Below, piece by piece: positions 44,702 through 63,049 of a stretch of 64,000 nt of DNA. Location of the stretch: positions 1 to 64,000 of the IMG/VR virus record IMGVR_UViG_3300043313_001099, one strand, 5' to 3'. A program made the position numbers and the translations under genes. The notes under the pieces are model-generated. The model ran no database searches. It saw nothing but the letters and a program-made list of their open reading frames with translations, and was not told the DNA's origin. How positions within the stretch are numbered: position 1 is the stretch's first letter; each line of letters opens with the position of its first letter. Source of the stretch: a virus.

Positions 44702-44750
44702 ATGGCAATTTGCCATCGGTTTGCTATCCGCTTGCCATCGGGTTTGCTAC
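44702..44750 (+). repeat. Heptad array A1
   Basis: ATGGCAA-T-TTGCCAT, then TTGCTAT 44721, TTGCCAT 44732, TTGCTAC 44744. Confidence 0.9.
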
Positions 44751-44944
44751 GCGCCGGTCTGTCCGACTGTGGGCCAGGTGATCCACGGGCTGATCGGCCG
44801 GGGCGGGAGGGTGGTACGGACCCACAGAGGTTCGCGGGGGGCGTCGCCGGCCTCGATCCGTTCGGCCAGCTCAGCAAGGGTGCGTGCTTGCAGAGGAGCC
44901 GCGCGGTATGGCAATTTGCCATCGCCTTGCCATGTGGTTGTCAT
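44747..44944 (-). CDS. Small hypothetical protein flanked by arrays A1 and A2
   Basis: ATGA coupling to the upstream gene. Confidence 0.45.
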   Translation of the reverse strand: MTTTWQGDGKLPYRAAPLQARTLAELAERIEAGDAPREPLWVRTTLPPRPISPWITWPTVGQTGA

Positions 44945-44955
44945 TGCCTTGCCAT
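44908..44955 (+). repeat. Heptad array A2
   Basis: ATGGCAA-T-TTGCCAT, then TTGCCAT 44927, TTGTCAT 44938, TTGCCAT 44949. Confidence 0.9.
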
Positions 44956-45384
44956 CCTCTCCTGCTCCAGCCGGCGCTCAACGGCGGCGAGCTGGTCGGT
45001 CAGGGTGTCGACGTTGAGCTCCGCCAGGTCCCGCCCGCGCTGGGCGGCTGCCAGCTCCGCGCCCATGCGCTCCTCGGTGATCCGGACAGCCTCGTCCACC
45101 AGCCGCCGGAACCGCTCATCGCCGGCCAGGCTTCGCCGGAGGTAGTCCAGTGCAGGGCCGGGGGTGATCGTGCCAGCACCGGCGTAGAGGTCGGCGCACC
45201 GCTGGTACACATCCAGCACGGCCGGCGGGGCGGTGGCGTCCCGGGCCGGGCACGGGTCGCCGGCCCACGTCGCGTAGGTCTGCCCGCAGGACGTGCAGCG
45301 GGAACCGGGGCCTCTGCTGGATGTCCAGCGGTGGCCGGAGCGGGCCTCCTCCTCCACCCATGCCGGGTCGCGGGGGGCGGTCAT
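44941..45384 (-). CDS. Hypothetical protein with small Zn-binding motif and coiled coil
   Basis: HRW...CTSCG...PCP; ATGA coupling. Confidence 0.6.
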   Translation of the reverse strand: MTAPRDPAWVEEEARSGHRWTSSRGPGSRCTSCGQTYATWAGDPCPARDATAPPAVLDVYQRCADLYAGAGTITPGPALDYLRRSLAGDERFRRLVDEAVRITEERMGAELAAAQRGRDLAELNVDTLTDQLAAVERRLEQERMARQ

Positions 45385-46028
45385 GTCCGGGGCCAGGTAC
45401 CGAGGCGGGCGGCGGTAGCCAGGCAGTACAGGGAGCGCACGAGGTTGCCCGGACCCACGCCGCTGGTCGCCCACATGTCGTCCCGGTCCACGAGGCGCAC
45501 GGTGTCCTCCAGGGGCTTCCCCCTCATCCGGGTGAGGCCGTAGCCGTAGCCGTTGATGTCGACGGCGGTGACGGTGCGGACCTCGACGCGCTTCCGGTTG
45601 TTAACGAGGCTGCGGACGCCGCGTAGCTGAGCGGCCCGGTCCTCATCGGTGAGATCCTCCTCCGCCACCATCCAGCCCTCATTCATAGCGACAACGGCGG
45701 CGATGCCGTCTCGGGCGTCGGCGTAGGCCAGGGCCGGCAGGTCGCGGTCCGGGGCGGGGAGGGACAGGGCGGTCGTGCGGAGGTCGTCGGCGGGGTTGTC
45801 CAGGCCGGTGCGCCAGGCCCGACTGGAGACCGGGCGGACCTCAACGGCGTTGGTGTCCAGGTCGGCCAGGTGAAGGGTCCAGACGCGGGCCGGCTGGTCC
45901 CATCCGAGCCGCTCCCCCTCCCGGGCCTCGATGGAGCGGAGGGCACAGATCAGGCCGTCCCGTTCACGGTTGCCGGTCACGTCCTCCCAGCGGCCGAGGA
46001 TGATGCGCTTCCGTTCGATGTACGCCAT
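45381..46028 (-). CDS. PPA1309-like protein (start ATG 46028)
   Basis: GWDQPARVW.L and R.EVR...AV motifs; AAAGGAG RBS. Confidence 0.55.
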   Translation of the reverse strand: MAYIERKRIILGRWEDVTGNRERDGLICALRSIEAREGERLGWDQPARVWTLHLADLDTNAVEVRPVSSRAWRTGLDNPADDLRTTALSLPAPDRDLPALAYADARDGIAAVVAMNEGWMVAEEDLTDEDRAAQLRGVRSLVNNRKRVEVRTVTAVDINGYGYGLTRMRGKPLEDTVRLVDRDDMWATSGVGPGNLVRSLYCLATAARLGTWPRT

Positions 46029-46062
46029 GCCGGCGGGGTCTCCTTTGCTGGTAGGGGTGTCG

Positions 46063-46103
46063 TTACGGAGTAGTGTACGGGATCGTTTACGGGGCGGTAC
46101 ACT
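46063..46103 (+). promoter_or_regulatory. TA promoter/operator: (T/G)TACGG x3 at 12-bp spacing plus TACACT -10 (leaderless)
   Basis: Repeats at 46063, 46075, 46087; TACACT 46098; a divergent TACACT on the - strand at 46072-46077. Confidence 0.6.
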
Positions 46104-46109
46104 GCTTCC

Positions 46110-46367
46110 ATGACGAGGATGCTGCGGGTCTCTGCCGACACCCATGAGAGGCTGCTCTCGCTGGTCCGGGCCGAGTACCCGGGCCGGACCGTGAACGATG
46201 TGCTCGGCGTGCTCCTCGATGAGCATTGGGAGCGGCAGGCCATCTTGGCTGTGGACTCCACGTCGGACGCCGAATGGGAGGGATGGCGGGCCGAGATGCG
46301 TGACCTTGACCGGCTCGGTAGCCCCGACGTTGACCCGTGGGTCCACTCCACGGAGCAGGCCGCGTGA
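46110..46367 (+). CDS. Antitoxin (RHH-like N-terminus, acidic C-terminus)
   Basis: MLRVSADTHERL; GTGA overlap with the toxin gene. Confidence 0.8.
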   Translation: MTRMLRVSADTHERLLSLVRAEYPGRTVNDVLGVLLDEHWERQAILAVDSTSDAEWEGWRAEMRDLDRLGSPDVDPWVHSTEQAA

Positions 46368-46699
46368 TCCCCGATCCGTGGACCGTGTGGTGGGCCGACC
46401 TCGACCCGACAGAAGGGCACGAGCAGGGTGGGCACCGGCCGGTCGTGGTGATCTCCTCCCCGCTGCATGTCCGCCTCACCCGGGGAGAGCTGGTCACGGT
46501 CGCGCCGATCACCAGCCGCGACCGGCCGACCTGGCTGCACCGGGTACCCGTCGTCACGCCCCGGGGAACCTCGTACGTGGTAGCCGAGCAGCTCCGCAGC
46601 ATCGCGGTTGCCCGGTTGGGTGACCGGCCAGCCTGGCGGCTCACCCCGCACGAGGCGGCGGCGGTACGGCAGGTCCTCCGGCGCATGGTGGACTTCTGA
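46364..46699 (+). CDS. mazF: MazF/PemK family endoribonuclease toxin
   Basis: WWADLDPTEGHEQGGHRPVVVIS, VAPITS, EQLRSI...RL. Confidence 0.92.
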   Translation: MIPDPWTVWWADLDPTEGHEQGGHRPVVVISSPLHVRLTRGELVTVAPITSRDRPTWLHRVPVVTPRGTSYVVAEQLRSIAVARLGDRPAWRLTPHEAAAVRQVLRRMVDF

Positions 46700-46822
46700 C
46701 CGCCTCGTGTACGGTGATGCTTGCGAGCCCTAATTCGTGATCTACCCCGTGGGCAGTAGCTCCCAGAAGTGAGCCCGGTCCCCGTCCGGACGGTCGGCGG
46801 CCGGGCTTCACGCTGTCCGGGG

Positions 46823-47572
46823 TCAGCGGCGACGCCCCACCTGCCGGGCGAGGAGCTCCAGGGTGTACTGGCCGTACTCCTCCAGGGTGAGGGAGTGGCC
46901 GCAGTTGTCACAGGTGATCGTCTCCGTGCCGACCAGCCAGTGCAGTCCGCGTTCCCCACAGCCCGTGGTGCGGGAGGAGCAGCGCCACTTCTGGCAGCGG
47001 AGATCGCCGTGGATGCGGCAGGGCACCAGCGGGCAGGGACCTTCCCGGGGCTCCCGGGCCTCGGTGACTCCCCGGTACCGGCGTACCCGGCGGCACAGGT
47101 CCGCGAGCTGTACGGCGGCGTCCGCCCCGTCCATGTCTACCGGCTCCGCCTCGCCGTAGCGGAGGACGCCGGCCGGCGGCAGGGAGCGGAGGGTGGGGAA
47201 GTGCTCCAGGAGGATGCGGCCGGCGCGGGCCACTGCGACATGGCCGCGCACGCCGCGCTCAGCTACGTCGGCGAGGCCGGCGGCGGCGGCCACGGGTACC
47301 GCCCACATCTCCAGGGTCCAGCGGATCTCGCGGGCCATGGCGTCCGCGCCGAGGTTGATCGGGATGGCGGCCTCGACGCTGCGGGAGCCGGGCATGGAGG
47401 AGAGGCCACGGCCGACCAGTTGGCCCTGCTCATCTCCGAGGGCCTCGTAGTGGTCGGGGAGCTCCCGTACCGCCTGGATGGCGTGGCGTTCGCAGGGCCA
47501 GCACAGCGCCCCCCCGGTGTCATCCGAGGGGGCGTCGCGGTTGCGGCAGTAGGGGCCGAATCGGCAGGTCAT
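46823..47572 (-). CDS. Multi-Zn-finger phage protein
   Basis: C....YC, LCWPC, GPCP, CG, CDNCG motifs. Confidence 0.7.
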   Translation of the reverse strand: MTCRFGPYCRNRDAPSDDTGGALCWPCERHAIQAVRELPDHYEALGDEQGQLVGRGLSSMPGSRSVEAAIPINLGADAMAREIRWTLEMWAVPVAAAAGLADVAERGVRGHVAVARAGRILLEHFPTLRSLPPAGVLRYGEAEPVDMDGADAAVQLADLCRRVRRYRGVTEAREPREGPCPLVPCRIHGDLRCQKWRCSSRTTGCGERGLHWLVGTETITCDNCGHSLTLEEYGQYTLELLARQVGRRR

Positions 47573-47952
47573 TGGGCGGCGAGTCTCGGGGCGTCCACGG
47601 CGACCGTCAGGAGGCGGCGGCGCAGGCCGGGGATGGCCGGACCGCGCAGGCCGGCCGAGGTCTCCAGGTCCCGCTGGGCGGGCTGGATCGGGGAAGCGGG
47701 GACGGTGCGGCCCTCATCGGCCGGGCCACCGATGGCCTCCAGGAGCTCCTGCGTGACGGTGCGGATCAGGTGGTCGGCCACGGACTCGATGATGGCCGTC
47801 GCGGCGTCGATCCAGGCGGCCCGCTGTGCCTCCGGGAGGTCATCCCAGGAGGGCATGTTCAGGCCGGCGTGGTTCTTCCAGTCGGCGCGGCGGCCGTAGG
47901 CGTGGTAGCCGATCTGGGCCGGTGCGGCGGCCGGGGGAAGGGTGGGTGACAT
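47569..47952 (-). CDS. Hypothetical protein (start ATG 47952)
   Basis: GYHAYG...MPSWDDLP..QRAAW; GAGGGAG RBS. Confidence 0.7.
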   Translation of the reverse strand: MSPTLPPAAAPAQIGYHAYGRRADWKNHAGLNMPSWDDLPEAQRAAWIDAATAIIESVADHLIRTVTQELLEAIGGPADEGRTVPASPIQPAQRDLETSAGLRGPAIPGLRRRLLTVAVDAPRLAAQ

Positions 47953-48048
47953 GCGAGTTCTCCCTCGTCGGGTAAGGGGTGGGTGCGCCGGGCACTGTAA
48001 CGGAACCAGCCGCCGTGGTGTCGCTGACACGGCGGCCGGTTCTGCTGG

Positions 48049-48240
48049 TCAGCGGCGTGTCTCGGCTCGGTGGGCAATGAAGGCCGCGAGGTTGCAGGCG
48101 GCAATGAAGATGGCGAACCACATCGCAACCGTGCGGCGGTTGACGACGGCGAATCCGATGGCTACCAGGCTGGAGAAGTAGCAGCCGAGGAGGAACACGT
48201 CCACCATCGGCCGAGGGTCGATGCGGCGGAGCCTGCTCAT
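48049..48240 (-). CDS. Small 2-TM membrane protein
   Basis: Two hydrophobic helices; ATGA coupling. Confidence 0.55.
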   Translation of the reverse strand: MSRLRRIDPRPMVDVFLLGCYFSSLVAIGFAVVNRRTVAMWFAIFIAACNLAAFIAHRAETRR

Positions 48241-48602
48241 CGGCCATTCCAGGTCAGCTCGAAGATCGCCGGCCGGTCCGCCGTGGCGGCGTGCCGGGGC
48301 ACGATCCTGTACCAGGCGCGGCAGCCGCCCCGGGTCGGGTTGCCCCGGCGGTACGCCCACGGCTTCCCACACTCGATCAGGCAGTTGTGCCGGTCGGCGC
48401 GGTCCACGGCCCAGCGGGAAACGAAGGTGGCGATGCCGCAGCAGGGGGCGGTGACCCGGTACCGGGCGTCGTCGCCTTTCTCCGGCCGGTGCAGGGTGGC
48501 CTCTACGAGGATCGGCTCCCCCTTGCGTACCGAGGGGCGGCCGGTCGGCGTCCGCAGCTCCTCCCTGGTGTAGATGTGCGGCGCGGCGTCCACGGCGGTC
48601 AC
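48237..48602 (-). CDS. Cys-rich hypothetical protein
   Basis: PCCG, ECG, GCR; GTGA coupling. Confidence 0.6.
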   Translation of the reverse strand: MTAVDAAPHIYTREELRTPTGRPSVRKGEPILVEATLHRPEKGDDARYRVTAPCCGIATFVSRWAVDRADRHNCLIECGKPWAYRRGNPTRGGCRAWYRIVPRHAATADRPAIFELTWNGR

Positions 48603-49039
48603 CGCTCGCCCATCTCGGGCCGAACGTGCAGCGCGATGCCGAGGGCGTCCAGGACCACCTGGCCGTTGGTACGGTCAAAGCGGCACAGGATGTCTCCGAG
48701 GCGGTCGATCTGCCGTCCCGTGGCCAGGCCGACCGCAAGGCGGAGCGCGCCGAACGCAGAGCTGGACAGGTAGCCGATCCACCGTGCGGACTCCGGGGCC
48801 GGGTCGGAGCCGGCCAGCTCGGCGGCGTCCAGGGCGGCGCACAGTTCCCGCCACTGGGCGGATAGCCCCTCCGGGTCGGCGTGGAGGCAAGCCCGGAGGC
48901 CGGCGTGCTCCAGGAGGCTGCCGCCGTTGAAGCCGGTCAGGATGGCAATGGCGGCCTGCCGGTTGAGGTCATCGTTGCGGTGTGTATGGCGGAGGGCGGC
49001 GGCCAGGGCGGCCTGCGCGGCGGTGCGTACGTCGATCAT
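48599..49039 (-). CDS. Hypothetical protein, likely paralogue of 54873..55538
   Basis: AA..IL...LL, W..L, AL.LA..LA, L..FD..N..V..AL. Confidence 0.65.
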   Translation of the reverse strand: MIDVRTAAQAALAAALRHTHRNDDLNRQAAIAILTGFNGGSLLEHAGLRACLHADPEGLSAQWRELCAALDAAELAGSDPAPESARWIGYLSSSAFGALRLAVGLATGRQIDRLGDILCRFDRTNGQVVLDALGIALHVRPEMGER

Positions 49040-49494
49040 GGGGTCTCCTCGGGCGTGACGTTGTGGCCTACCCGGTTGCCGATGGAGTGGGCGCGGGCCA
49101 GGTGTCGGGCGGCGTCGGCCATCAGGAACAGGGCGGCCTGCACGGCCTCCGTGTAGGCGGTGTGTGTGGCAGCCAGGGCGGCCGGCTCATCGGTGCGGCC
49201 GGTCCTGGCGTCCGTCACGTACGAGCCGGGCAGTCGGCACAGCTCCCTGAACCTGTCGGCGGTCTGGGTCAGGGTCTGATCCAGGAGAGCCAGGGCCCCG
49301 TGGATGTTGCCGGTCAGGTAGCCGACGCCGGAGGCGTACGGCAGGCCGGCAGGGTTGGCCGTGGCGTAGTTGAGGTACCGGACCAGCTCGTAGACGAGGG
49401 AGGCGGCGCGGGCGGTGTTGTCCTCCGTGTGCGGGCCGTTGAGGGGGAACAGGTACCCGGCCAGTTCGCGGGTGTCCTCGGGCAGGTCGGTCAT
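49036..49494 (-). CDS. Helical hypothetical protein
   Basis: ELVRYLNYAT motif; ATGA coupling. Confidence 0.65.
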   Translation of the reverse strand: MTDLPEDTRELAGYLFPLNGPHTEDNTARAASLVYELVRYLNYATANPAGLPYASGVGYLTGNIHGALALLDQTLTQTADRFRELCRLPGSYVTDARTGRTDEPAALAATHTAYTEAVQAALFLMADAARHLARAHSIGNRVGHNVTPEETP

Positions 49495-49682
49495 CGGCGT
49501 GCCGGCATCGCGCGGGCGGCGAAGGCAAGCTGCTTCAGCCTGGTGGCGTCCGCGACCAGGCTCGTGAGCTGGTCAGGGCGGAGGGTATCGATGATGGCCT
49601 TGGCCTCCTGCTCGTCTCCCTGCATGAGGGCGAGCAGGGCCTCGGTCTGCGGGTGGGGGGTTTCCGGGTGCTGGCGGGACAT
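49491..49682 (-). CDS. Small hypothetical protein
   Basis: CCCCGACAGGAG start motif. Confidence 0.65.
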   Translation of the reverse strand: MSRQHPETPHPQTEALLALMQGDEQEAKAIIDTLRPDQLTSLVADATRLKQLAFAARAMPARR

Positions 49683-49775
49683 GCCGCGCCTCCTGTCGGG
49701 GTCGGGATCGGGATGCCGGTCGGCTCTCCCCCGCGCGCACCCGGGCGGTACCCGGGCACGACGGGGGCGGGCCGG

Positions 49776-50351
49776 TCAGCGGCCGTCACTGTCTCGGTCA
49801 TCGACGGCAGGCCGGCCGCCGATGCAGGACCAGTGCGCGTCGTACGGCCGGCCGCCAATGATGTGGAGGTCATCCTTGCTGGTCGGCTCGCCACACACCC
49901 GGCACAGCACGGCCGGTTCCTCGGCCGGGGTCTCATCGGGCTCCTCCCAGCGGTGGAGGTTCAGGGTCCGGACGCCCCGATTGGTCCGCGACGTGTGGGA
50001 GAACTCCCAGCCCTCGGCCTCGGCAGCAGTGCGGGCGGCGGCGAGTTGCGCCTCCTCCTCGTCCTGCGGCACGCGGTCAAGGTAGACGGTGCGGGTGGCC
50101 CGACGGAGGCCGACGCGGGACAGGTCGCCCACTCCAGCGCCGTCCGGCACGCGGGTGAACTGGCCGGCGAGGATCTGAGTCCACTCGACGGCGGACAGCT
50201 CCAGGTCGATCAGGGTCTCCCCCGAGGTGCTGTCGCGGACGTGGAGGTTGACGTAGCGGCCGGCCTCGTCCGCCTTGGGGTAGCCCTCGGCGTTGGTGAC
50301 CGGGTAGGCGAGCTGGACCAGGGCCTCAACCTTGCGGGCGATGCGGCTCAT
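49776..50351 (-). CDS. Hypothetical protein with C-terminal Zn finger
   Basis: GAGGAG RBS; CRVCG...HWSC. Confidence 0.65.
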   Translation of the reverse strand: MSRIARKVEALVQLAYPVTNAEGYPKADEAGRYVNLHVRDSTSGETLIDLELSAVEWTQILAGQFTRVPDGAGVGDLSRVGLRRATRTVYLDRVPQDEEEAQLAAARTAAEAEGWEFSHTSRTNRGVRTLNLHRWEEPDETPAEEPAVLCRVCGEPTSKDDLHIIGGRPYDAHWSCIGGRPAVDDRDSDGR

Positions 50352-50387
50352 GCGGGTAGTGCTCCTCTCGGGGGTCAGGTTGCCGGT

Positions 50388-50558
50388 CTATCGGATCGGC
50401 CGGGCACTGTGTGGCCGGCCGAGGTCACTGGCGTCGATGTGACGCCAGTACGGGTCCTTGCAGTCGACCCACTCGATCGGGCCGTTGCAGGTGTGGCAGA
50501 CCATCCATGCGGCCTGCTGCCAGGTCTTCTCGCGGTCGCCAGGGGAAGTGGTCGACAT
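50388..50558 (-). CDS. Small Zn-binding protein (MSTTSPG...)
   Basis: AAAGGAG RBS; CHTC...WRH...H. Confidence 0.55.
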   Translation of the reverse strand: MSTTSPGDREKTWQQAAWMVCHTCNGPIEWVDCKDPYWRHIDASDLGRPHSARPIR

Positions 50559-50578
50559 GCGGTGGTGCTCCTTTCGGG

Positions 50579-50959
50579 TCAGACTGCGGGAGTGAACTGG
50601 AGGTGGCTGAGTGCGCCCGGCGCGTACTCCATGGTTCCGACGCGGGACCAGGTGCCGCCCGGGTAGACCTCGATGACGGGGGAGCCGGCGCGGGCCAGCA
50701 TCGGCATGACGTAGATGCTGGCCGTGGTGAGCAGGCCGGCGCGGAGGAGGGCGTCCAGGTCGTTGCCCATCGCCAGACGAAAGTCCTGGCTGGACATCGA
50801 CAGCGGGATGCCGAGTCCTTCGCCCACCAGCCGGTGCGCTGCGGTCTTGTTGGCGGCGGCCACGAGGACTCGCGCCTGACTGGTGTGCCGGGGCAGGCCA
50901 AGCGCCTCGGCCATCTGCGGCCCAATGAATCCGCTGTTGCCGAGTGTGAACACCTTCAT
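50579..50959 (-). CDS. Hypothetical protein
   Basis: GAGG RBS; codon usage. Confidence 0.6.
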   Translation of the reverse strand: MKVFTLGNSGFIGPQMAEALGLPRHTSQARVLVAAANKTAAHRLVGEGLGIPLSMSSQDFRLAMGNDLDALLRAGLLTTASIYVMPMLARAGSPVIEVYPGGTWSRVGTMEYAPGALSHLQFTPAV

Positions 50960-51828: not shown

Positions 51829-52245
51829 TCAGTCCTCCGTGGGCTGCATGACGGTAATGACCCGCTCCCCGTCATCTCCCGGGTGAACCACGACCTTGAG
51901 GAGGACTGCGCGGGGGTGGGCATCCAGGCCAGCCCGGGACACGCGGCGCAGCCTGAACAGGGTGCGACCGCCCTTCCGGCCCTGAGTGCGGATGGCGTCC
52001 CGCAGCATTCCGAGCACGTTCCAGAGGCGGCCCGTCTCGTCCTGCGAGATGCCCTTGCGGTTGCTGTCGGCCTCGGTCCAGGCCACGCAGTTCTCCCAGG
52101 CGGCGCGGGTCAGCGCAACCGGGGTGTCGATGATGCCGGCGTTGCTGAGCAGTTCCGGATCAACGGCGATGAGGCTGCCGTCCGCGAGCATGTCGGCGCG
52201 GCTGTAGGCGTCGATGGTGTCCGCGTTGGTGAAGAAGTGGGTCAC
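51829..52245 (-). CDS. DUF6573-like protein (start GTG 52245)
   Basis: AYSRA..LADG.L, PVALTRAAW..CV.W, QDETGRLW.VL, PGDDGE.VIT.M.P.ED. Confidence 0.8.
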   Translation of the reverse strand: MTHFFTNADTIDAYSRADMLADGSLIAVDPELLSNAGIIDTPVALTRAAWENCVAWTEADSNRKGISQDETGRLWNVLGMLRDAIRTQGRKGGRTLFRLRRVSRAGLDAHPRAVLLKVVVHPGDDGERVITVMQPTED

Positions 52246-55966: not shown

Positions 55967-56224
55967 CTACTCGCGTACCGGAGACCTATGCGTGCAGGTC
56001 TTGAGCATCAGCGGGTACCAGATCCGGCTGTACGTGTCGTGGTCCACGAGGCGAACCTCGATGCCGGCGCGGAATGCCTCCAGGCGCTCGGCACGAGTCC
56101 CGTACATCTGGTTCCAGGCTGCCGCCTCGTCACGGCAGGAGCGGGTGCGCTCCCTGACGGCGGTAGGGCAGCCACACTTCTTGACGAACACGAACTGCTT
56201 GCGCTGGGCCTGGGTGCGATCCAT
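55967..56224 (-). CDS. Small Cys/His protein
   Basis: CGCP...CTH; GAGG RBS. Confidence 0.6.
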   Translation of the reverse strand: MDRTQAQRKQFVFVKKCGCPTAVRERTRSCRDEAAAWNQMYGTRAERLEAFRAGIEVRLVDHDTYSRIWYPLMLKTCTHRSPVRE

Positions 56225-56249
56225 GCCGGTTACCTCTCACTCCTGACGC

Positions 56250-56297
56250 ATGGCAATTTGCCATCGTCTTGCCATTGTCTTGCCATCTGGTTGCTAC
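56250..56297 (+). repeat. Heptad array A3
   Basis: ATGGCAA-T-TTGCCAT, then TTGCCAT 56269 and 56280, TTGCTAC 56291. Confidence 0.9.
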
Positions 56298-56470
56298 GGC
56301 GGGGACTCCTCCGGCGGCGCGGTGCGGGCCAGCTTGGCGGCGTGGCGTGCGGCCAGCCCGTACCGGCGGCGTCGGCGGAACTCCTCGTGCACGGCTCGCC
56401 GTGCGGCCCGGCGGGACAGCGCGCGTCGGGCGTGGTCTTCAGGGGTCGGGACCTCGGGGTATTGATCCAT
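56294..56470 (-). CDS. Small basic protein (58 aa, MDQYPEVPTPED...)
   Basis: GGAGG RBS; below the ORF-track cut-off. Confidence 0.5.
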   Translation of the reverse strand: MDQYPEVPTPEDHARRALSRRAARRAVHEEFRRRRRYGLAARHAAKLARTAPPEESPP

Positions 56471-56503
56471 ACCTCCAGTGTGAGGTAAGGACCGCTTACC
56501 TCA

Positions 56504-56848: not shown

Positions 56849-57249
56849 CGGAGCTCCGCCCCGTGCCTGCCGGGGACGGCTCCGGCGTCGAGCTGCCGGC
56901 GGACCTCATCCTCAATCTCGGCCGGGTGGCTGCCGGCGCGGGCCGACGTGCCGATGCCGGCAATGCAGCACTCCACCAGGTGCTCGACGGTGGCCTGGCG
57001 GGGGGCGGCGGTGATGACGGCAGCCACGTAGCGGGGGACGTAGACCTGCGCCCAGACGGCGCGCTCCTGGGCCACGTAGGCGGTGATCGACTGGTGCACG
57101 TCGCGGATCAGGAAGGGCTCGCGCCGGGCGCGGAGCTGCTCGCAGACCAGGGCCACGAGGACCGAGGCGCGGCGGGTGCCGGTGGAGTTGGCGACCTGGC
57201 CGATGATGCCGTCCAGGCTGGCGGGTGGGCGGATGGTGGTGACGGTCAT
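56845..57249 (-). CDS. Hypothetical protein (start ATG 57249)
   Basis: CCCCGACAGGAG start motif. Confidence 0.65.
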   Translation of the reverse strand: MTVTTIRPPASLDGIIGQVANSTGTRRASVLVALVCEQLRARREPFLIRDVHQSITAYVAQERAVWAQVYVPRYVAAVITAAPRQATVEHLVECCIAGIGTSARAGSHPAEIEDEVRRQLDAGAVPGRHGAELR

Positions 57250-57329
57250 GCTGAACTCCTGTCGGGGAGGAGGGGCGGTCGGTACCCCGGCGGGCGGTGC
57301 GTCACCCGGCCAGGGGGATCTGAGGGCGT

Positions 57330-57695
57330 TCAGGGGGCCAGCGGGCAGGCCGGCTTCAACTCCTTCACGCCGAGGAGTGCGCGGACTTCGCGGAGCGCGG
57401 CGGCGGCGGCCGGCACGAGGTGGACCAGGGGGACCGGAACGTCCCAGCCGTAGTGCACCCGCACTCGCCAGCACAGGTCCGTGACCGTGGCACCCGGGGC
57501 ACCGAAGGCCATGAGGGTGACGATCGCAGCCAGGTCATCCGGCGCGGCAGGGGCCGGTTCCTGGTTGGCCTGGCGGAGGTGCGCGGCGCGGCTGGCGAGC
57601 TCGGCGGCCAGGTCCATTCGGGAGGGATCGCGGTGGGGTGCGATCAGCTCCTGCGCGGCGCGCTCCAGGAGGTCGGGCAGGGTGAGGTGCTGCAT
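57330..57695 (-). CDS. Hypothetical protein (start ATG 57695)
   Basis: CCCCGACGAAAGG start motif. Confidence 0.6.
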   Translation of the reverse strand: MQHLTLPDLLERAAQELIAPHRDPSRMDLAAELASRAAHLRQANQEPAPAAPDDLAAIVTLMAFGAPGATVTDLCWRVRVHYGWDVPVPLVHLVPAAAAALREVRALLGVKELKPACPLAP

Positions 57696-57820
57696 GGTGG
57701 TGCCTTTCGTCGGGGGATCTGGTGGTGCTGCGCGGGGCGGGTGCGTCGCTGGTCCGCGCGGGGAGCGTAACTCCGGACAGGTCGGTCGGGCGTCCTCCGC
57801 TCGGCCGGCTCCGGGGCTGG

Positions 57821-58135
57821 TCAGCACTCCCCGGCGTGGGTGGAGAAGCAGACCGGGCAGGCGGCAGAGCGGACCTTGGCAACCTCGGCGGCGTTGATCC
57901 GGGCCTGCTGCCGGACCTGCTTGGCGGCCTGCGCGGCGGCCAGGCGGGCGTTGTAGGCCAGGACCTGTGCGGTGTAGGCGGCGCGGTCGGCGGCCTCCTC
58001 GGGGGTGTCGCGGCGGGTGGTGACTCCCGCGATCGGCGGGAGGCCGAGGCCGACGTAGGGGGCGTGGTCCTTGCGGATCTGCCGGTCGCGGCCGGCCAGG
58101 AGGCTGGACTTGCGGGGGGTGGCGGGGATCTGCAT
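57821..58135 (-). CDS. Hypothetical protein with C-terminal CxxC..HxxxC (start ATG 58135)
   Basis: First gene after P6. Confidence 0.65.
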   Translation of the reverse strand: MQIPATPRKSSLLAGRDRQIRKDHAPYVGLGLPPIAGVTTRRDTPEEAADRAAYTAQVLAYNARLAAAQAAKQVRQQARINAAEVAKVRSAACPVCFSTHAGEC

Positions 58136-58166
58136 GGTGGGCTCCTGTCCGGGGGAAGCGGTGTGC

Positions 58167-58208
58167 CTTACTGACACGAGGTTACCGCACGGCTAGCCCT
58201 GGTGTCAA
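58167..58208 (-). promoter_or_regulatory. Repeat promoter P6
   Basis: TTGACA ccagggctagccgtgcgg TAACCT cgtgtca GTAAG; hairpin 58215-58240 just upstream. Confidence 0.85.
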
Positions 58209-58254
58209 CCACTGAGGGGGCGGAGTCTCCCCCGCCCCCTTTGGCTTGGCCCGC

Positions 58255-59238
58255 TCAGCCGTTCTTGATCTTCCGGGCCACCCGGGCGGCCAGGCTGGCG
58301 ACTACCTCGTCAACCGTGCGGTTCGACTTCGCGGCCAGGGCCTCGGCCAGGATGAGGGCGTTGGCGCGGTGCTCGGCGTGGTTGGCCGGGTTGCTCCAGG
58401 AGTACCCCGGGGCGGCGGCCTCCTCGACGTACAGGATCTCTGCGGCCCGGACGGTGCGGATGGTCTCGTACCCGACCTTGAGCACGCCCCCGTCCGGAGC
58501 GGCGATCAGCTTGGGGTCCTCGGTGCGGGCCTTGCGCTCGGCGGCCAGCTCGTACGCCCGGTTGGTGTGCTTCCGCAGGCCGCCGCCGTGGGTGGCCGCT
58601 ACGGCGCGCGCCCCGCAAACCTCGCAGTCGCCGGTGTAGCTCATGCCGTACGTGCGGTAGTTGACGCCGGTCCGGTTGCTGCACTTGCTCGGGTCCTCGA
58701 CCTCAGTGCGGCCGGCGGTCCAGGAGAGCGGGGCGGAGGGGAAGCAGACCGTGCAGAGGATCGGGCCGAGGGCGTTGACCGCCTCCTGCTCGGTCAGGCC
58801 GGACAGCTCCGGATTCCAACCGAACTCGGTGGCGTTGACGCCCCGGTTGCAGGTCTGGCAGTTCATGGAGCGGTGGATGTGGCCGTTGTTCTGCTGGACG
58901 GTGAAGAACCGCGACCAGCCTCCCCGGCGGAGGTACTCGGCGTGCAGCGGCTCAGCCTTGGCCAGGATGGCGTCCAGCTCGGCGCGGGCCTTGCCGTAGG
59001 CGGCGAGGGCGGCGGCAACCTGGCCGGACGTGGCCTCCAGTGCGCGGGCCTTGTCCAGGGCTTCGGCGTCGGTGGTCGGCCAGCCCTTCCGCTTGCTCCA
59101 GGGGTCCTGCTTCTCACCGAGGGCGCGGTGGATGGTGTTGACCCGGCTGGCCACCCGGCCGCGTGCGCCGCTCTCCTGGCGGTAGAGGTCTGCGAGCTGG
59201 GTGTCGATCTCGGCGGGGGTGGCGGTCCGAATGTTCAT
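58255..59238 (-). CDS. Zn-binding actinophage protein (327 aa)
   Basis: WSRFF.V..NNGHIH....C.TC, LCTVCFPSAP, CEVCG. Confidence 0.75.
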   Translation of the reverse strand: MNIRTATPAEIDTQLADLYRQESGARGRVASRVNTIHRALGEKQDPWSKRKGWPTTDAEALDKARALEATSGQVAAALAAYGKARAELDAILAKAEPLHAEYLRRGGWSRFFTVQQNNGHIHRSMNCQTCNRGVNATEFGWNPELSGLTEQEAVNALGPILCTVCFPSAPLSWTAGRTEVEDPSKCSNRTGVNYRTYGMSYTGDCEVCGARAVAATHGGGLRKHTNRAYELAAERKARTEDPKLIAAPDGGVLKVGYETIRTVRAAEILYVEEAAAPGYSWSNPANHAEHRANALILAEALAAKSNRTVDEVVASLAARVARKIKNG

Positions 59239-59271
59239 GCTGGGCTCCTGTCGGGGGAGGGTGTCGCGTCG

Positions 59272-59313
59272 CTTGCATCTACTACGTTAGAGGACGAGGT
59301 AACCTCGTGTCAA
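59272..59313 (-). promoter_or_regulatory. Repeat promoter P7
   Basis: TTGACA cgaggttacctcgtcctc TAACGT agtagat GCAAG; internal palindrome ACGAGGT-N-ACCTCGT. Confidence 0.85.
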
Positions 59314-59370
59314 TAGGGAATCTCGACAGGTGCCCCCACCTGCCCATACTCTGCCAAGGCACCCCCCCGA

Positions 59371-59407
59371 GCTCCGGCCGCCCCGACCCGAGGAGGGCGG
59401 CCGGAGC
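59371..59407 (-). terminator. Hairpin upstream of P7
   Basis: GCTCCGGCCGCCC/GGGCGGCCGGAGC. Confidence 0.7.
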
Positions 59408-59412
59408 CCCGG

Positions 59413-59772
59413 TCACGCCCGGGGGCTGACCACGTGGGAGATGTGAAGCTGCGCCTCCAAGGCGGAGTACCGACCCAGCGCGCGACCCTCGGCGTACGGC
59501 AGGAACCGGTCAACGACGTGCCCCAGGGCGTGCAGGTAGGAGTACGCCCCGAGGATGGTGTTGCCCCCCAACAGCACCTCGAACCCGTGGTTCTCGATCT
59601 CCTCCACCGTCAGGCCGAGCTCCTCGGCACGCATCCGGACCTGGACCATGGCCGGGGTGTACTCCGGCCCGTAGGTCAGCTCGGCCGGCGAGCGGTAGCC
59701 GGCCAGCAGGGTGCTGGTGTGGGCGTCGGTCAAGGAGGGGGTGGTGTTGGTGGTAGCGGTGGTGGTGTTCAT
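59413..59772 (-). CDS. Hypothetical protein
   Basis: Single gene under P8; AGGAGG RBS. Confidence 0.7.
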   Translation of the reverse strand: MNTTTATTNTTPSLTDAHTSTLLAGYRSPAELTYGPEYTPAMVQVRMRAEELGLTVEEIENHGFEVLLGGNTILGAYSYLHALGHVVDRFLPYAEGRALGRYSALEAQLHISHVVSPRA

Positions 59773-59807
59773 GGCCCCTCCTAGGGGTAAGAGGTAAGGC
59801 GGAGTGC

Positions 59808-59848
59808 CTTACCTCCACTAAGTTACGCGCTCGATAACCTCGTGTCAA
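59808..59848 (-). promoter_or_regulatory. Repeat promoter P8
   Basis: TTGACA cgaggttatcgagcgcg TAACTT agtggag GTAAG; 10-bp hairpin 59791-59815 at the predicted +1. Confidence 0.85.
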
Positions 59849-59987
59849 CTTCCCCTTATTCACCCAGGTCAAGCGGCTTCATGGCTGGTCTCCCTACGTG
59901 GACAGGGGGGCGGGTACGTACACTAGGTTACCCGCCCGTGGCGTCTACGTCTACAGGGTTACCGGCCGAACTTCCTTCCGGCGCTTA

Positions 59988-60016
59988 TTGACATTGGGTT
60001 TTGCGTGGCGTAACGT
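59988..60016 (+). promoter_or_regulatory. Repeat promoter P9 (degenerate spacer), divergent from P8
   Basis: TTGACA ttgggttttgcgtggcg TAACGT ggtgtcc. Confidence 0.75.
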
Positions 60017-60050
60017 GGTGTCCAGTCACATCCCCCGAGAAAGGCACACG

Positions 60051-60803
60051 ATGACCACGGACGACGCTGACAAGGCCAAAATGCTCGACCGCATTCGGAA
60101 ACTCCTGGCCAAGGCGGAAGACCCGGCCGCCACCACGGGCGAGGCAGAGACGTACACGGCGAAGGCCACCGAGCTGATCGCCAAGTACGGCATCGACCAG
60201 GCGCTCCTGGCCGCGTCCGGCGTGACGCGGAGCACCATCGGCAACCGGATCGTCACGGTTGACTCCCCGTACTCGTACGCCAAGGCGCTCCTGCTGTACC
60301 GCCTGGTCGAGGCGCTGGGCGGCGAAGCCATCATGATGACGAACCGGCGCGGCACGGCCACGGGCGGAGTCCGCAAGGTCCACATCTTCGGGTACGACTC
60401 CGACCTGGAGCGTGCGGAGCTGCTCTACACCTCGCTCCTGGTTCAGCTCTCCTTCGCCATGCTGGCGGGGATCCCGGAGCCGGGCGAGGGCATCAAGGAG
60501 TGGAGGCGCTCGTTCATCATCGGCTTCACTGAGCGCGTTGTGGCGCGGGTAAGGGAGGCCGAGGAGGCGGCGCACCGGCAGGCGGACCGGGAGCGCACGA
60601 GTGGCCCCTCGACGGATCTGGTCCTGGTCGACCGGGCCAAGCTGGTCCGCCGGGAGTTCATGCAGGTGTACCCGAGCGTCCGAACGACCTCAATGAGCGC
60701 GGGCACCTCGGGCATGGACGCTGGCCGGGCGGCCGGGAACCGGGCCAGTCTGGGCGGTACCCGGGTGGGCAGCGGAGCGGGGCGGCCGGCGCTGGGTCGG
60801 TAG
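60051..60803 (+). CDS. DUF2786 domain protein (start ATG 60051)
   Basis: MLDRIRKLLAKAE....T.GEAE....KA.EL.AKYGID; FG..SD....E.LYTSL; RRSF..GF. Confidence 0.88.
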   Translation: MTTDDADKAKMLDRIRKLLAKAEDPAATTGEAETYTAKATELIAKYGIDQALLAASGVTRSTIGNRIVTVDSPYSYAKALLLYRLVEALGGEAIMMTNRRGTATGGVRKVHIFGYDSDLERAELLYTSLLVQLSFAMLAGIPEPGEGIKEWRRSFIIGFTERVVARVREAEEAAHRQADRERTSGPSTDLVLVDRAKLVRREFMQVYPSVRTTSMSAGTSGMDAGRAAGNRASLGGTRVGSGAGRPALGR

Positions 60804-60815
60804 TCCGCGCGGAGT

Positions 60816-60843
60816 GGTGGCCCTGCCGAGAGGCGGGGCCACC
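60816..60843 (+). terminator. Hairpin upstream of P10
   Basis: GGTGGCCCTGCC/GGCGGGGCCACC. Confidence 0.65.
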
Positions 60844-60872
60844 TGCCGTTTCGGGGGGTTCCCAATCAGGAC

Positions 60873-60913
60873 TTGACACGAGGTTAGTCGGGGCGTAACC
60901 TTGTGGTTGTAAG
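60873..60913 (+). promoter_or_regulatory. Repeat promoter P10
   Basis: TTGACA cgaggttagtcggggcg TAACCT tgtggtt GTAAG. Confidence 0.9.
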
Positions 60914-60940
60914 GCACACCGACCAACCACGGAGGCCAGC

Positions 60941-61303
60941 ATGACCGCACCAGCCACCACCCTCCGACTCCCCCGCCTCTACTGGGACACCGCCCTGATC
61001 ATCGACGGAGACCACGCCTGGCTCCAGGGTCCGGCCGGCTACCCGATCCCAACCGCGACCGGCCCCCGCTGCGGAAACTGCGACGGGAAGCGTCACGCCT
61101 CCGCTACCGCGATCCGGCACTGCTACGAGAACTCCCGGATGCAGGACGAGGCCGCTGAGGCGGACTACCGGCACGAGCAGTACTGCGAGCGGGCATGGGA
61201 GAGCCGGTTCTCCGTCCAGATGCAGTACGAGTTGGATCTGGAGCAGCAGGTCACGGGCCGACACTGGTCCGACACGGGCCACGGCGAGCCGTACCAGTAC
61301 TGA
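60941..61303 (+). CDS. Zn-binding hypothetical protein
   Basis: CGNC...H......R.C; GGAGG RBS. Confidence 0.7.
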   Translation: MTAPATTLRLPRLYWDTALIIDGDHAWLQGPAGYPIPTATGPRCGNCDGKRHASATAIRHCYENSRMQDEAAEADYRHEQYCERAWESRFSVQMQYELDLEQQVTGRHWSDTGHGEPYQY

Positions 61304-61399
61304 CCGCCCCCGGTCCGGGCAACCGGGATGGGACGTGAGCCGCGAGGCCGCGTCCCGTCCGGGGCCGCCCGGCCCTACCCCGACGAGAGAGGTTCCACC

Positions 61400-61675
61400 A
61401 TGTCCGACGAGACCACGACCGCCATCAGCCGTGGAGACGCCCGCCAGTACCTGGAGGTCATGCGGCAGATGCCCTACGCCGCCAACATCGTCCCCCGGAT
61501 CAACCTCGACACCCTGACTTTCGGCCAGATCATCGACCACATGGGGGAGCTGGCCGCCCGACTTGCCGAGGTCGGCAAGCGGGACGCGCGGCAGTCTATC
61601 GAGTTGGCCGAGGCCAAGGCCGTACTCAAGGGTGGCCGCGACCTGTTCGCCTACCTGTCCCGGCAGGAGGGCTGA
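61400..61675 (+). CDS. Hypothetical protein (start ATG 61400)
   Basis: CCCCGACGAGAGAGG start motif. Confidence 0.65.
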   Translation: MSDETTTAISRGDARQYLEVMRQMPYAANIVPRINLDTLTFGQIIDHMGELAARLAEVGKRDARQSIELAEAKAVLKGGRDLFAYLSRQEG

Positions 61676-61731
61676 CCGCTGCGCTTCCGGCCGGCATGTA
61701 CCAGCGACGTGCCGGCGCGGTGGCCAACCGG

Positions 61732-61755
61732 CCGACACCGACACCGACACCGACA
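61732..61755 (+). repeat. CCGACA x4 tandem repeat immediately before a GAGGAG RBS
   Basis: Read directly. Confidence 0.85.
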
Positions 61756-61768
61756 CCGAGGAGTGAGC

Positions 61769-62080
61769 ATGGGACCGTACTGCCGCTACTGTGACCGGCG
61801 CTGCTTCGTGGAGCGCATCCTGCACGATGACCAGTGGTCGCTGCTCGCCACCTGCGAGGCCGGCATGGAGCACGACCGGGAGCGGGTCGGGGAGGATCAC
61901 GTCACCGCCCGCAACCCGCGCAACCCGGACAGCATGGCCGGCCGCCGCCGCTCCCCCGCCTGGATCCGGTACTACCGGAACCACCCCGAGGTCTCCGCGA
62001 CCTGGGGCGAACAGAACGGCCGGGAGCCGACCTGCACCTGCGCGGCCTGCTCCCCCGTCAACGCCGGCCCGACCGGGTGA
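61769..62080 (+). CDS. Cys-rich hypothetical protein
   Basis: MGPYCRYCDRRCFV...LATC..G...DR; CTCAAC. Confidence 0.7.
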   Translation: MGPYCRYCDRRCFVERILHDDQWSLLATCEAGMEHDRERVGEDHVTARNPRNPDSMAGRRRSPAWIRYYRNHPEVSATWGEQNGREPTCTCAACSPVNAGPTG

Positions 62081-62151
62081 CCGGAGTGGCGCGCGGCCCC
62101 GGTCGCGTACCGCTCCGGCCACCCGGCCGGCACCCGACAGGAGGGACCAGC

Positions 62152-62490
62152 ATGGAGATCATCACCGGCAGTACCCCGCTCACGGACGAGGAGGCGGGGG
62201 AGCTCCACCACGTCATGTACCGGATGCCAATGGGGGCGGTCGGCGTCGACCTGGCCCGGCTCCAGCCCACAACCGCGCGTCCGGTCACGGCGGCCGACGT
62301 CGTTCACGTCCTCAACCAGTTGCGGAACGAGGCAACCGCCTTCGTCTCCTCCGCGACCACCTGCCGCGACGAGGTGAAGTGGTGGCGGGACTGGTACCGC
62401 CGGCAGGTGGAGGCCGGCATCCAGTTGCCGGAGATGCCCCTGCTCGGCAGCGAGCCGCCGCCCCCGGCCGACGACGAGGTGGCGCGGTGA
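62152..62490 (+). CDS. Hypothetical protein (start ATG 62152)
   Basis: CCCGACAGGAG start motif. Confidence 0.65.
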   Translation: MEIITGSTPLTDEEAGELHHVMYRMPMGAVGVDLARLQPTTARPVTAADVVHVLNQLRNEATAFVSSATTCRDEVKWWRDWYRRQVEAGIQLPEMPLLGSEPPPPADDEVAR

Positions 62491-62687
62491 AGATCAGCGT
62501 GCCACTGGTCATCGAGGTCGACCCCCGCGAGTGGAACTGCGGCGAGTTCGCCGGCCTGACCGGTCGGGAGCTGGCCGAGGCTGTGCGCGAGGACGTGCGC
62601 CGGTACGTGGAGTACTCGGTGCAGGGCCTGAACCTCCTGAGCGAGGCGGACGCCCGGGTCAACCGGGTCCGCGTCCGGGGGCGCTGA
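62487..62687 (+). CDS. Small hypothetical protein
   Basis: GTGA coupling; hairpin 62710-62740 follows. Confidence 0.6.
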   Translation: MKISVPLVIEVDPREWNCGEFAGLTGRELAEAVREDVRRYVEYSVQGLNLLSEADARVNRVRVRGR

Positions 62688-62770
62688 GGCTCTCTCCAAC
62701 CGCTCTGCAACGCCCCGTCAGGCCCCGGCCGGCGGGGCGTCCTGCTGTCTCCCCGGGAGGGGTTCGCCCG

Positions 62771-63049
62771 ATGGCAAAATTCCGGCGCGGCACCCCCTCT
62801 GACCTGGGATGGAATGGCAATTTGCTATCGGGTTGATGGCAACGCTATGGCAGGCATTATGGCAAACGTGTTTTGCCATTCGGTTAAATACAGGTTCGCG
62901 CCCTACCGATCGACACATGCCTAGACAGGTATAAGTGATTGCCGTCACAGGTGTCATGGTTTCCGCAGGTCAGAGGGCCTATCAGGGCATGGCAATTTGC
63001 CATCGTCTTGCCATCCGGTTGATAGCAAAGCGATGGCAAGTCATAGCGA
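62771..63049. repeat. Heptad arrays A4 (62814-62879) and A5 (62989-63049) with a 12-bp inverted repeat
   Basis: About 12 ATGGCAA/TTGCCAT-type heptads in both orientations; CCCTCTGACCTG 62795 / CAGGTCAGAGGG 62966. Confidence 0.85.

Follow-up and report, generated by a model that had tools for sequence, protein, structure and literature searches.

What are the five arrays of a short, phased heptad that lie scattered over this phage genome, and which protein reads them? The window, meaning the whole 64,000-nt stretch of DNA that was analysed, belongs to a 75,461-bp contig of an element that derives from soil metagenomes. A sequence-only reading called the arrays centromere- or iteron-like and offered two explanations for them, a distributed parS-like system or loading sites for TraB. 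We believe that only the iteron half of the label was right. Our reading, to which we give a probability of roughly 0.7, is that the heptads are iterons of the phage's own replication initiator, that array A5 together with A4 is the origin, and that A1-A3 are accessory arrays.

Five phased heptad arrays

The window holds 25 exact copies of TTGCCAT/ATGGCAA against 1.87 expected, and none of 100 dinucleotide shuffles reaches at least 25. Clusters of at least 4 heptads, with at most 1 mismatch allowed, number 5 in the window versus a mean of 0.005 over 200 shuffles. These are the five arrays of the sequence-only reading, and we find them where it placed them (44702, 44908, 56250, 62814 and 62989), each headed by ATGGCAA-T-TTGC(C/T)AT. 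Contigs assembled from other soil-metagenome runs are identical to the window over A1/A2 and over A5, so the arrays are not assembly artefacts.

Most of the described geometry was also read correctly. In A1-A3 the palindromic head is followed by direct heptads, spaced 11/11/12 bp in A1 and 11/11/11 bp in both A2 and A3. The 28-bp identity of A3 with A5 (56248-56275 and 62987-63014) and the 20-bp identity of A1 with A2 (44699-44718 and 44905-44924) are both correct. The spacers do vary while the heptads are kept: among A1, A2 and A3 identity is 92% in the heptad columns, 36% in the spacers and ~30% in the flanks (Fisher p = 5e-11). The idea of a protein that would lie along one face of the DNA at helical phase is consistent with all of this. 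Two details can be added. The repeat unit is closer to 8 bp, GATGGCAA. A4 and A5 depart from a plain direct array, since their heptads turn inverted after the palindrome, and in A5 the start-to-start spacings are 8, 11, 14 and 11.

The heptad in initiator genes of other genomes

The sequence-only reading suggested a scan of the rest of the replicon for further arrays and an adjacent parA/parB or rep gene. The last 11.4 kb of the contig contains a candidate rep gene, no more arrays and no ParA. The gene, at contig position 73176-74027 and thus outside the window, encodes a putative lambda-O-like replication initiator of 283 aa, and directly downstream is a putative DnaC-like helicase loader (74024-74869; IstB_IS21, E 8e-9; PHROG 50, E 5e-28). 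A profile search matched the initiator to no Pfam family. Its C-terminal part matches PHROG 391, 2514, 4880 and 2149 and its N-terminal part PHROG 2447 and 3926, under names such as replication initiation O-like, replisome organizer, DnaD-like and replication initiation protein. In phages of Streptomyces, Gordonia and Bacillus, the C-terminal domain has matches among genes whose annotation is replication initiation protein or replisome organizer. The N-terminal domain, of which this protein is the one homologue in the phage genome, has an AlphaFold (AF2) model with a pLDDT of 91.6; its structural neighbours are winged-helix domains at Z 6.5-7.5, which identify a generic winged helix and nothing more specific.

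Prophages of Micromonosporaceae and Streptosporangium share this signature of palindrome plus heptad, as do IMG/VR phages, and in all of these it is nearly always inside a lambda-O-like initiator gene, 40-100 bp past the N-terminal winged-helix domain. The strict pattern ATGGCAATTTGCYAT-N4-TTGCYAT occurs at only 8 loci in IMG/VR and 185,579 species genomes, and at 7 of the 8 the array lies within the gene for a homologue of our initiator, 40-100 bp past its conserved N-terminal ~130 aa, with the ORF running on through the array. The heptads are read in differing codon frames among these relatives, so they are conserved as DNA. We also scanned the 350 bp after the N-domain in 36 further IMG/VR homologues. 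Those with at least 37% N-domain identity carry 3-19 copies of ATGGCAA in that stretch, and the rest of the locus is nearly free of them. At the same spot, more distant homologues have other words, phased at 10-12 bp: CGCGACA, GCCGGACA, CACCTGG, GAGTCAC, AAGCAAA, AGCAAAC and GCCAAGC. The full records of relatives with phased arrays have them at the mid-gene position only, and the motif array is present as one copy per 7-11-Mb genome. The heptad is tied to the initiator gene, and not to par or tra genes, across ~20 other genomes.

In a tree of N-domains the phage protein nests among the ATGGCAA carriers (support 100/86), on a long branch (1.11), and mid-gene arrays occur in 12 of the 13 members of the wider clade. 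The motif label clusters on this tree, with 0 of 500 shuffles as low, and the phage initiator retains 12 of the 13 residues that mark the ATGGCAA group. The match of protein sequence to motif is not one-to-one, because two homologues (L027 and L029) carry ATGGCAA but are without the basic loop that characterises the clade. Judged from these comparisons, the binding-site sequence appears to change along with the DNA-binding domain of the initiator, though imperfectly given those two.

A candidate origin outside the initiator gene

There are no heptads past 63049 in this phage, and the linker of its initiator gene is without any. We place the candidate replication origin at 62688..63179, where 490 bp of non-coding DNA separate plus-strand genes and contain A4, A5 and two AT-rich tracts. 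A4 (62771..62879) consists of a lone ATGGCAA at 62771, then ATGGCAAtTTGCTAT, then inverted ATGGCAA/ATGGCAG/ATGGCAA and a last TTGCCAT. The tract on its right edge (62851..62895, 40-bp GC 0.38) is one of just three sites in the 75-kb genome with a 40-bp GC of at most 0.40. A5 (62989..63049) reads ATGGCAAtTTGCCAT-cgtc-TTGCCAT-N7-ATAGCAA-N4-ATGGCAA-N3-ATAGCGA and matches the in-gene origin core of six relatives column for column at six heptad positions. Directly to its right is the AT-richest tract of the genome, a candidate DNA-unwinding element (63036..63100) with a GC of 0.30 at 63049-63088 versus a genome mean of 0.71. A5 and A4 thus each adjoin one of the two lowest-GC tracts of the genome, and because of this they are probably the origin, shifted 10 kb from the initiator gene. 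A4 and A5 are ~175 bp apart, and A1-A3 lie 7-18 kb away.

The mechanism we infer from these features is as follows. The winged-helix N-terminal domain of the initiator would bind the heptads, and its assembly on the phased heptads would melt the adjoining AT-rich tract. The C-terminal domain would then recruit the loader and the helicase. On this account the origin would have left the initiator gene and would now occupy an intergenic gap 10 kb upstream, versus a position inside the gene among the relatives examined.

The origin of lambda and the Stx phages sits in the middle of gene O (PMC7466680). Our phage is like lambda O/ori-lambda (and Stx phages 933W and P27) in having a two-domain initiator, a helicase-loader gene next after the initiator gene, and repeated initiator sites that adjoin an AT-rich region, and in its relatives these sites are mid-gene as in lambda. 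It differs in that its origin is outside the initiator gene, 10 kb upstream. Its sites are 7-8-bp words at an 11-bp phase, both direct and inverted, whereas lambda has four 19-bp inverted repeats, and it has five arrays where lambda has one. No Pfam family matches its N-domain, which is not detected as a member of the lambda O family. We would class the system as of the lambda-O/replisome-organiser type by its initiator domains, loader, repeats and AT-rich region, as far as sequence can tell, but without the iterons inside the gene.

In SPP1, gp38 binds both oriL, which lies within gene 38, and oriR, an intergenic site far from it, and fork stalling at gp38-oriR has been proposed (PMC6316719). 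The likeness is that a single initiator has its direct repeats at two loci far apart, both equipped with an AT-rich unwinding element and one of them intergenic. In addition, 'replisome organizer' genes of Bacillus phages match the phage initiator in its C-terminal domain. However, oriL is inside gene 38 while the phage has no array in its initiator gene, three of the five phage arrays have no AT-rich element, and no similarity between the N-domains is detected. The SPP1 arrangement of repeats plus AT-rich element at several loci is found here only for A4/A5.

Probable accessory arrays in the early operons

A1-A3 lie between early genes, within two long leftward putative early operons. A1 (44702..44750; ATGGCAAtTTGCCAT followed by TTGCTAT, TTGCCAT and TTGCTAC) occupies the whole 66-bp gap between two co-directional minus-strand genes. 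Its last heptad, GTAGCAA on the minus strand, contains the TAG stop of the 44747-44944 gene, and beyond the array come the RBS and ATG (44680) of the next minus-strand gene. A2 (44908..44955; palindrome, TTGCCAT, a variant TTGTCAT and TTGCCAT) is partly coding, because it overlaps the ATGA at which one minus-strand gene (44941-45474) stops and the next (44747-44944) starts. A3 (56250..56297; palindrome, three copies of TTGCCAT, then TTGCTAC) shares its first 28 bp with A5. It occupies the gap from the stop of a small minus-strand ORF (56294-56470), whose TAG is again inside GTAGCAA, to the RBS and ATG (56224) of an 85-aa gene. In 40-bp GC windows none of the three has a meltable, AT-rich tract; for A1 there is none within 150 bp, and the lowest GC of 0.50 is within the array itself.

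We believe A1-A3 are probably accessory arrays, predicted to be bound by the same initiator without firing. They might damp initiation as a sink or pairing partner, act as a roadblock against early transcription after the initiator has built up, or form a barrier to the leftward fork; all three roles are possible and they are not separable here. In P1 incA and in the handcuffing of iteron plasmids, extra iteron loci restrain initiation. These systems, like the lambda 'inhibition phenotype' that cloned iterons cause, resemble A1-A3 in having initiator-binding repeats without origin function away from the origin. They are unlike A1-A3 in that the latter are within early operons, away from the rep gene. 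In lambda, iterons without the AT-rich part contribute to silencing theta replication (PMC3349717).

A related phage, G001, which lies inside the whole genome G030, has one intergenic array of the A1-A3 type. The repeats of its sole initiator homologue are of the GTCAC type, and an initiator of the ATGGCAA clade is absent throughout the 8.7-Mb genome. An array of this type can therefore persist without its cognate initiator, and another binder is possible. A more ambitious proposal is that an uncoupled origin with origin-less iteron arrays in both early operons forms a portable module, and that the G001 array is a decoy. We regard this as rather doubtful. If it were true, the level of initiator would act back directly on early transcription, further initiation or the leftward fork, the last of which would amount to a switch from theta to rolling-circle mode, and the orphan array in G001 would soak up the initiator of competing ATGGCAA-type phages.

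G001 is also part of the case for a different reader. A1-A3, and possibly all of the arrays, could be operators of a separate phage transcription factor; with head-to-tail polymerisation on the phased heptads, such a regulator would govern the leftward early operons. A1 and A3 are in early-gene gaps just upstream of start codons and A2 is over a gene junction, G001 retains its array without a cognate initiator, and two proteins, 58255-59238 (PHROG 2433) and 51829-52245 (DUF6573), are common only to the two phages with accessory arrays. Even so, we consider operators unlikely. Neither protein has a DNA-binding signature, and their co-occurrence with the arrays comes from two phages that are simply more closely related. 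No sigma-70-like promoter is present at A1-A3, and GACACGAGGTTA, a promoter family of the phage itself, is located elsewhere. A further objection is the 28 bp that A3 shares with A5: A5 is the orthologue of the relatives' in-gene origin, so whatever reads A5 should also read A3.

A1-A3 may instead be functionless duplicates of the origin's left half that recombination has scattered, in which case only A4/A5 matter. The palindrome and first heptad of A1-A3 are as in A5, a single array suffices in the relatives, and the orphan array in G001 could be a relic too. We find this improbable, since perfect 15-bp palindromes, the heptads and their phase are kept while spacers and flanks are at random level, which argues for selection and not for recent copying or decay. 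No fragments of the initiator gene flank A1-A3.

The distributed parS-like centromere, with a partition adaptor in the manner of the N15 sites or the Omega heptads, has fared worse, and we now think it very improbable. It is true that the sites are dispersed, phased and palindrome-headed, and that the genome encodes a ParB-like protein (39326-40117; PHROG 723, E 1e-34). We saw no integrase. The phage has a small resolvase and a PemK toxin, and this combination would be compatible with an extrachromosomal prophage. However, no ParA-type ATPase was detected. The sequence-only reading saw none in the window, and PF13614 and PF01656 are absent from the whole 75-kb record (estimated 92% complete), while both are positive in 14 of 14 control genomes. 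The ParB-like protein matches PHROG families only, without a Pfam match, and its gene is not linked to any array; it is directly upstream of a putative structural-gene block and 4.6 kb from A1, the nearest one. The heptads of Omega (pSM19035) are contiguous 7-bp units bound by a ribbon-helix-helix protein. The arrays here have instead an 11-bp phase with 4-bp spacers, and no such protein was identified among the phage proteins scanned. N15 and Omega do share with this phage short repeated sites in helical or serial order, scattered over the genome and in part at regulatory positions. Those systems use partition proteins of the ParA/ParB or Omega/Delta type, whereas the motif here tracks a replication initiator across genomes.

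That the arrays are loading sites (clt) for an FtsK-like TraB in conjugative transfer of double-stranded DNA is scarcely credible: a DUF2637 gene and a weak FtsK/SpoIIIE-like gene do lie within 1601-7485, but the latter (5224-7485) is 37-56 kb from the arrays (>37 kb from the nearest), TraB recognises GACCCGGA-type 8-mers, from which the heptad differs, and in relatives the motif goes with the initiator gene.

Heptad arrays in the phage genome

The window is the opening 64 kb of a 75,461-bp IMG/VR virus record, which comes from an actinobacterial phage of high GC (about 70%). Its structural genes (about 17.8-40 kb) and small early genes (40-59.8 kb) lie on the minus strand. They are followed by a plus-strand block at 59.9-75.4 kb that includes an AAA ATPase, a UvrD-like helicase, a clamp-like protein, an SSB, a 283-aa initiator-like protein (73176-74027 of the 75,461-bp contig) and a DnaC/IstB-like protein (contig 74024-74869). 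GC skew tracks gene orientation in this genome and plays no part in where we place the origin.

The window contains 25 copies of the heptad TTGCCAT/ATGGCAA where 1.87 are expected, and none of 100 shuffles gets to 25. There are five clusters of at least four heptads, against a mean of 0.005 in 200 shuffles, and all five arrays are headed by the palindrome ATGGCAA-T-TTGC(C/T)AT. In A1 (44702-44750), A2 (44908-44955) and A3 (56250-56297) three direct heptads follow the palindrome, with spacings of 11/11/12 bp in A1 and 11/11/11 bp in the other two. A4 (62771-62879) and A5 (62989-63049) differ from these because the orientation inverts, past the palindrome in A4 and past one direct heptad in A5, where the start-to-start spacings are 8, 11, 14 and 11. 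Contigs from other soil-metagenome runs are identical to the window across A1/A2 and across A5, so assembly cannot have produced the arrays. The public runs, all soil metagenomes stored as contigs, yielded neither a depth gradient nor RNA evidence nor sequence variants at the arrays. The sequence-only reading reported a 28-bp and a 20-bp identity, and both are exact. That reading also proposed scanning the rest of the replicon; the last 11.4 kb of the record holds no further arrays, and it does hold the initiator gene at contig 73176-74027. We came across no published account of this heptad; a literature search for it as an iteron gave chance primer matches only. A lone inverted pair, GTGGCAA-N6-TTGCCAT, lies at 10054-10073, remote from the arrays and with a spacer of N6 rather than the N1 of the palindrome; it may be chance or a weak sixth site.

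The heptad motif and its probable initiator

The strongest argument about the function of the heptads comes from other genomes. The signature ATGGCAATTTGCYAT-N4-TTGCYAT has 3 matches in IMG/VR and 5 in bacterial contigs taken at one genome per species (Micromonospora, Paractinoplanes, Streptosporangium, Actinoplanes and Catenuloplanes). Seven of these eight loci encode a homologue of the initiator, and the array lies 40-100 bp past its conserved N-terminal part of ~130 residues. The reading frame continues through the in-gene array (...EDGNLPSACHD.DSNAVANDGSR...), and since the heptads fall in differing codon frames at different loci, the repeats inside the gene must be conserved as DNA. An alignment-derived profile of this N-terminal domain found 36 more IMG/VR homologues. 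Those with at least 37% N-domain identity have 3-19 ATGGCAA-type heptads in the 350 bp past the domain and almost none elsewhere in their 8-kb loci. At greater distance the homologues have different repeats in that position, again with a 10-12 bp phase (CGCGACA, GCCGGACA, CACCTGG, GAGTCAC, AAGCAAA, AGCAAAC and GCCAAGC). The ATGGCAA label clusters on the maximum-likelihood N-domain tree, with no value as low in 500 shuffles. For eight relatives the full record has phased heptad pairs solely at the mid-gene position; that of a ninth (G004) has no such pair. The 15-bp palindrome occurs exactly once in each of five whole host genomes of 7-11 Mb and in 4 of 401 genomes of the family, a single copy each; the window phage has five copies in 75 kb.

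We believe the heptads are most likely the iterons of an uncharacterised family of lambda-O-like winged-helix initiators. The lambda origin lies in the middle of gene O and consists of iterons and an AT-rich region (PMC7466680), and the in-gene arrays of the relatives have the same arrangement. The initiator of the window phage matches PHROG families annotated as replication initiation O-like, replisome organizer, DnaD-like helicase loader and replication initiation protein, and its C-terminal domain matches 'replication initiation protein' or 'replisome organizer' genes in Streptomyces, Gordonia and Bacillus phages. Of the 13 residues diagnostic of the ATGGCAA group it has 12, among them the basic RNTRKRG.TPG loop; at the remaining one, K is changed to R. 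The N-domain has one homologue in the phage genome, the initiator itself. Its model (pLDDT 91.6) has winged-helix domains as structural neighbours. Foldseek against the PDB gives nothing at E 0.001 or better, and VIA-align gives generic winged-helix matches only (Z 6.5-7.5), so fold class alone is shown and no specific structural family can be claimed. Two ATGGCAA carriers are without the clade's basic loop. One of them, L027 (IMGVR_UViG_3300045922_001069, a record with direct terminal repeats), has at 4336-4520 sixteen direct ATGGCAA repeats in strict 11/12-bp alternation inside an initiator gene whose N-domain is without that loop; the word there appears to be read by a divergent domain.

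The label 'iteron-like' given to the arrays earlier was right, and so was the idea that a protein binds them along one face of the DNA. The two functions proposed with it fare worse. A distributed parS-like centromere is unsupported: no ParA-type ATPase was found in a search with positive controls, and the ParB-like protein matches PHROG families only and lies directly upstream of the structural-gene block, beside no array. TraB loading sites are likewise unsupported, since the gene in question is weakly FtsK-like and more than 37 kb away.

Hardly any origins of actinobacterial phages have been mapped. Comparison of these genomes assigns the DNA word GATGGCAA at an 11-bp phase to what would be an uncharacterised winged-helix initiator family without a Pfam model. 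It also indicates where the origin probably lies in a set of soil phages and of prophages from Micromonosporaceae and Streptosporangium, which is of direct use in building replicons and in interpreting prophage replication.

A4 and A5 as a candidate origin outside the initiator gene

The window phage is the informative exception, with a predicted origin outside the initiator gene and three origin-less arrays in early operons. Its initiator nests among carriers of the A5-type layout (tree support 100/86), and in the wider 13-member clade it is the sole member without mid-gene heptads; the linker of the gene has none at all. A4 and A5 sit instead in a 490-bp non-coding gap (62688-63179) flanked by plus-strand genes, 10 kb upstream of the initiator gene. 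Over six heptad positions A5 can be aligned, column by column, with the core of the in-gene origin in six relatives. Directly right of A5 is the 40-bp window with the lowest GC in the genome (63049-63088, GC 0.30 against a mean of 0.71), and the second-lowest value (0.38) is at the right edge of A4. Apart from these tracts, 40-bp GC falls to 0.40 or below at just one further place in the 75 kb. Each of the two arrays thus has the anatomy of an origin, iterons plus an unwinding tract. We believe A4/A5 is probably the replication origin, and A5 would be the relocated form of the in-gene core, moved out of the initiator gene. A tblastn search with the initiators of 13 relatives found no decayed initiator-gene fragments in the flanks; the arrays alone match, at E 0.003 or weaker. 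The N-domain (contig 73176-73583) is on a long branch, with 1.11 changes per site against 0.1-0.7 in its sisters, as if constraint changed after the origin left the gene.

Arrays A1 to A3, probably accessory

A1 occupies a gap of 66 bp that separates two co-directional genes of the minus strand. On that strand its distal heptad reads GTAGCAA and provides the TAG stop of the upstream gene, and the ribosome-binding site and ATG (44680) of the next lie beyond the palindrome. A3 is built in the same way between a stop at 56294 and an ATG at 56224, and A2 overlaps an ATGA stop/start junction. None of the three has an AT-rich tract; within 150 bp GC falls no lower than 0.47-0.50, and these minima lie in the arrays themselves. 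Among A1, A2 and A3 identity is 92% in the heptad columns, 36% in the spacers and about 30% in the flanks (Fisher p = 5e-11), which argues that the heptad words and their phase are under selection. On this comparison they are not recent copies, nor are they relics in decay; the three origin-less arrays are probably maintained by selection in early operons.

Scans for sigma-70-type promoters and terminators over 44-63.5 kb found nothing at the arrays. The 12-mer GACACGAGGTTA has 16 copies at up to 2 mismatches, against 2.8 expected, between 8026 and 60886. Most are in gaps ahead of operons (for example 8433, 40148, 52749, 58173, 59300, 59835 and 60875), and none coincides with an array. It is a promoter-like family of the phage's own, distinct from the heptads. 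Measured from the nearest copy upstream of each, A3 is about 1.9 kb downstream and A2/A1 about 7.8 kb, which puts A3 within one of the two long leftward operons and A2/A1 within the other.

A3 and A5 have 28 bp in common, and from this we infer that A1-A3 bind the same initiator as A5, presumably without firing. Three roles are possible by analogy. In plasmids, extra iterons restrain initiation by handcuffing. In the inhibition phenotype of lambda, extra iterons without the AT-rich part contribute to silencing further theta initiation (PMC3349717), and in SPP1, gp38 bound at oriR has been proposed to stall forks (PMC6316719). A1-A3 could accordingly act as a fork barrier, as extra iterons that silence or handcuff, or as a roadblock against early transcription. 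Such binding away from the origin has so far been addressed mainly in SPP1, lambda and iteron plasmids, and this phage offers a natural system for its effects (titration, roadblock, fork barrier). Pfam and PHROG scans of the proteins beside A1-A3, and of those in common with the related phage G001, gave no DNA-binding assignment except for 46823-47572, which matches PHROG 1568 and has a homologue in a relative without accessory arrays as well.

G001 and the locus at 8.18 Mb of the whole genome G030 are one and the same. This related phage shares with the window phage tail, portal, SSB, clamp-like and several early genes, and it has one intergenic array of the A1-A3 type, palindrome plus direct heptads, at G001:C1:27713-27773 (G030:C1:8184661). 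Its sole initiator homologue is 97 kb from this array and has mid-gene repeats of the GTCAC type. No ATGGCAA-clade initiator cognate to the array was found in the record or in the whole 8.7-Mb host genome. This orphan array may be left over from a swap of replication modules, may serve as a decoy or may be bound by another protein. The two phages with accessory arrays alone have two proteins without known function (58255-59238 and 51829-52245 in the window), which is not independent evidence because these phages are simply closer kin. Searches that started from small genes on the downstream side of A3 and A1 turned up no relatives, and megablast of 44-64 kb against plasmid and phage collections gave zero matches.

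The remaining genes include a sigma-70-family factor (28-852), a DUF2637 protein (1601-3289), the weak FtsK/SpoIIIE-like protein (5224-7485), a small resolvase-type serine recombinase (42240-42863) and a PemK/MazF toxin (46110-46699) with a partner ORF upstream. No integrase was seen in the element, and this together with the gene set would fit an extrachromosomal or transferable prophage. ARAGORN reports a tRNA-like gene on the minus strand at 40766-40835. Its enlarged loop contains a four-base anticodon (catg), it is given no amino acid, and it could be either a decayed phage tRNA or one of a frameshift-suppressor-like kind. The stretch 61342-62008, which holds small plus-strand genes including a Cys-rich ORF (61763-62080), has a summed contig depth of 43-112 in four soil metagenomes against about 2-10 elsewhere, and is common to many other organisms or elements in those soils.
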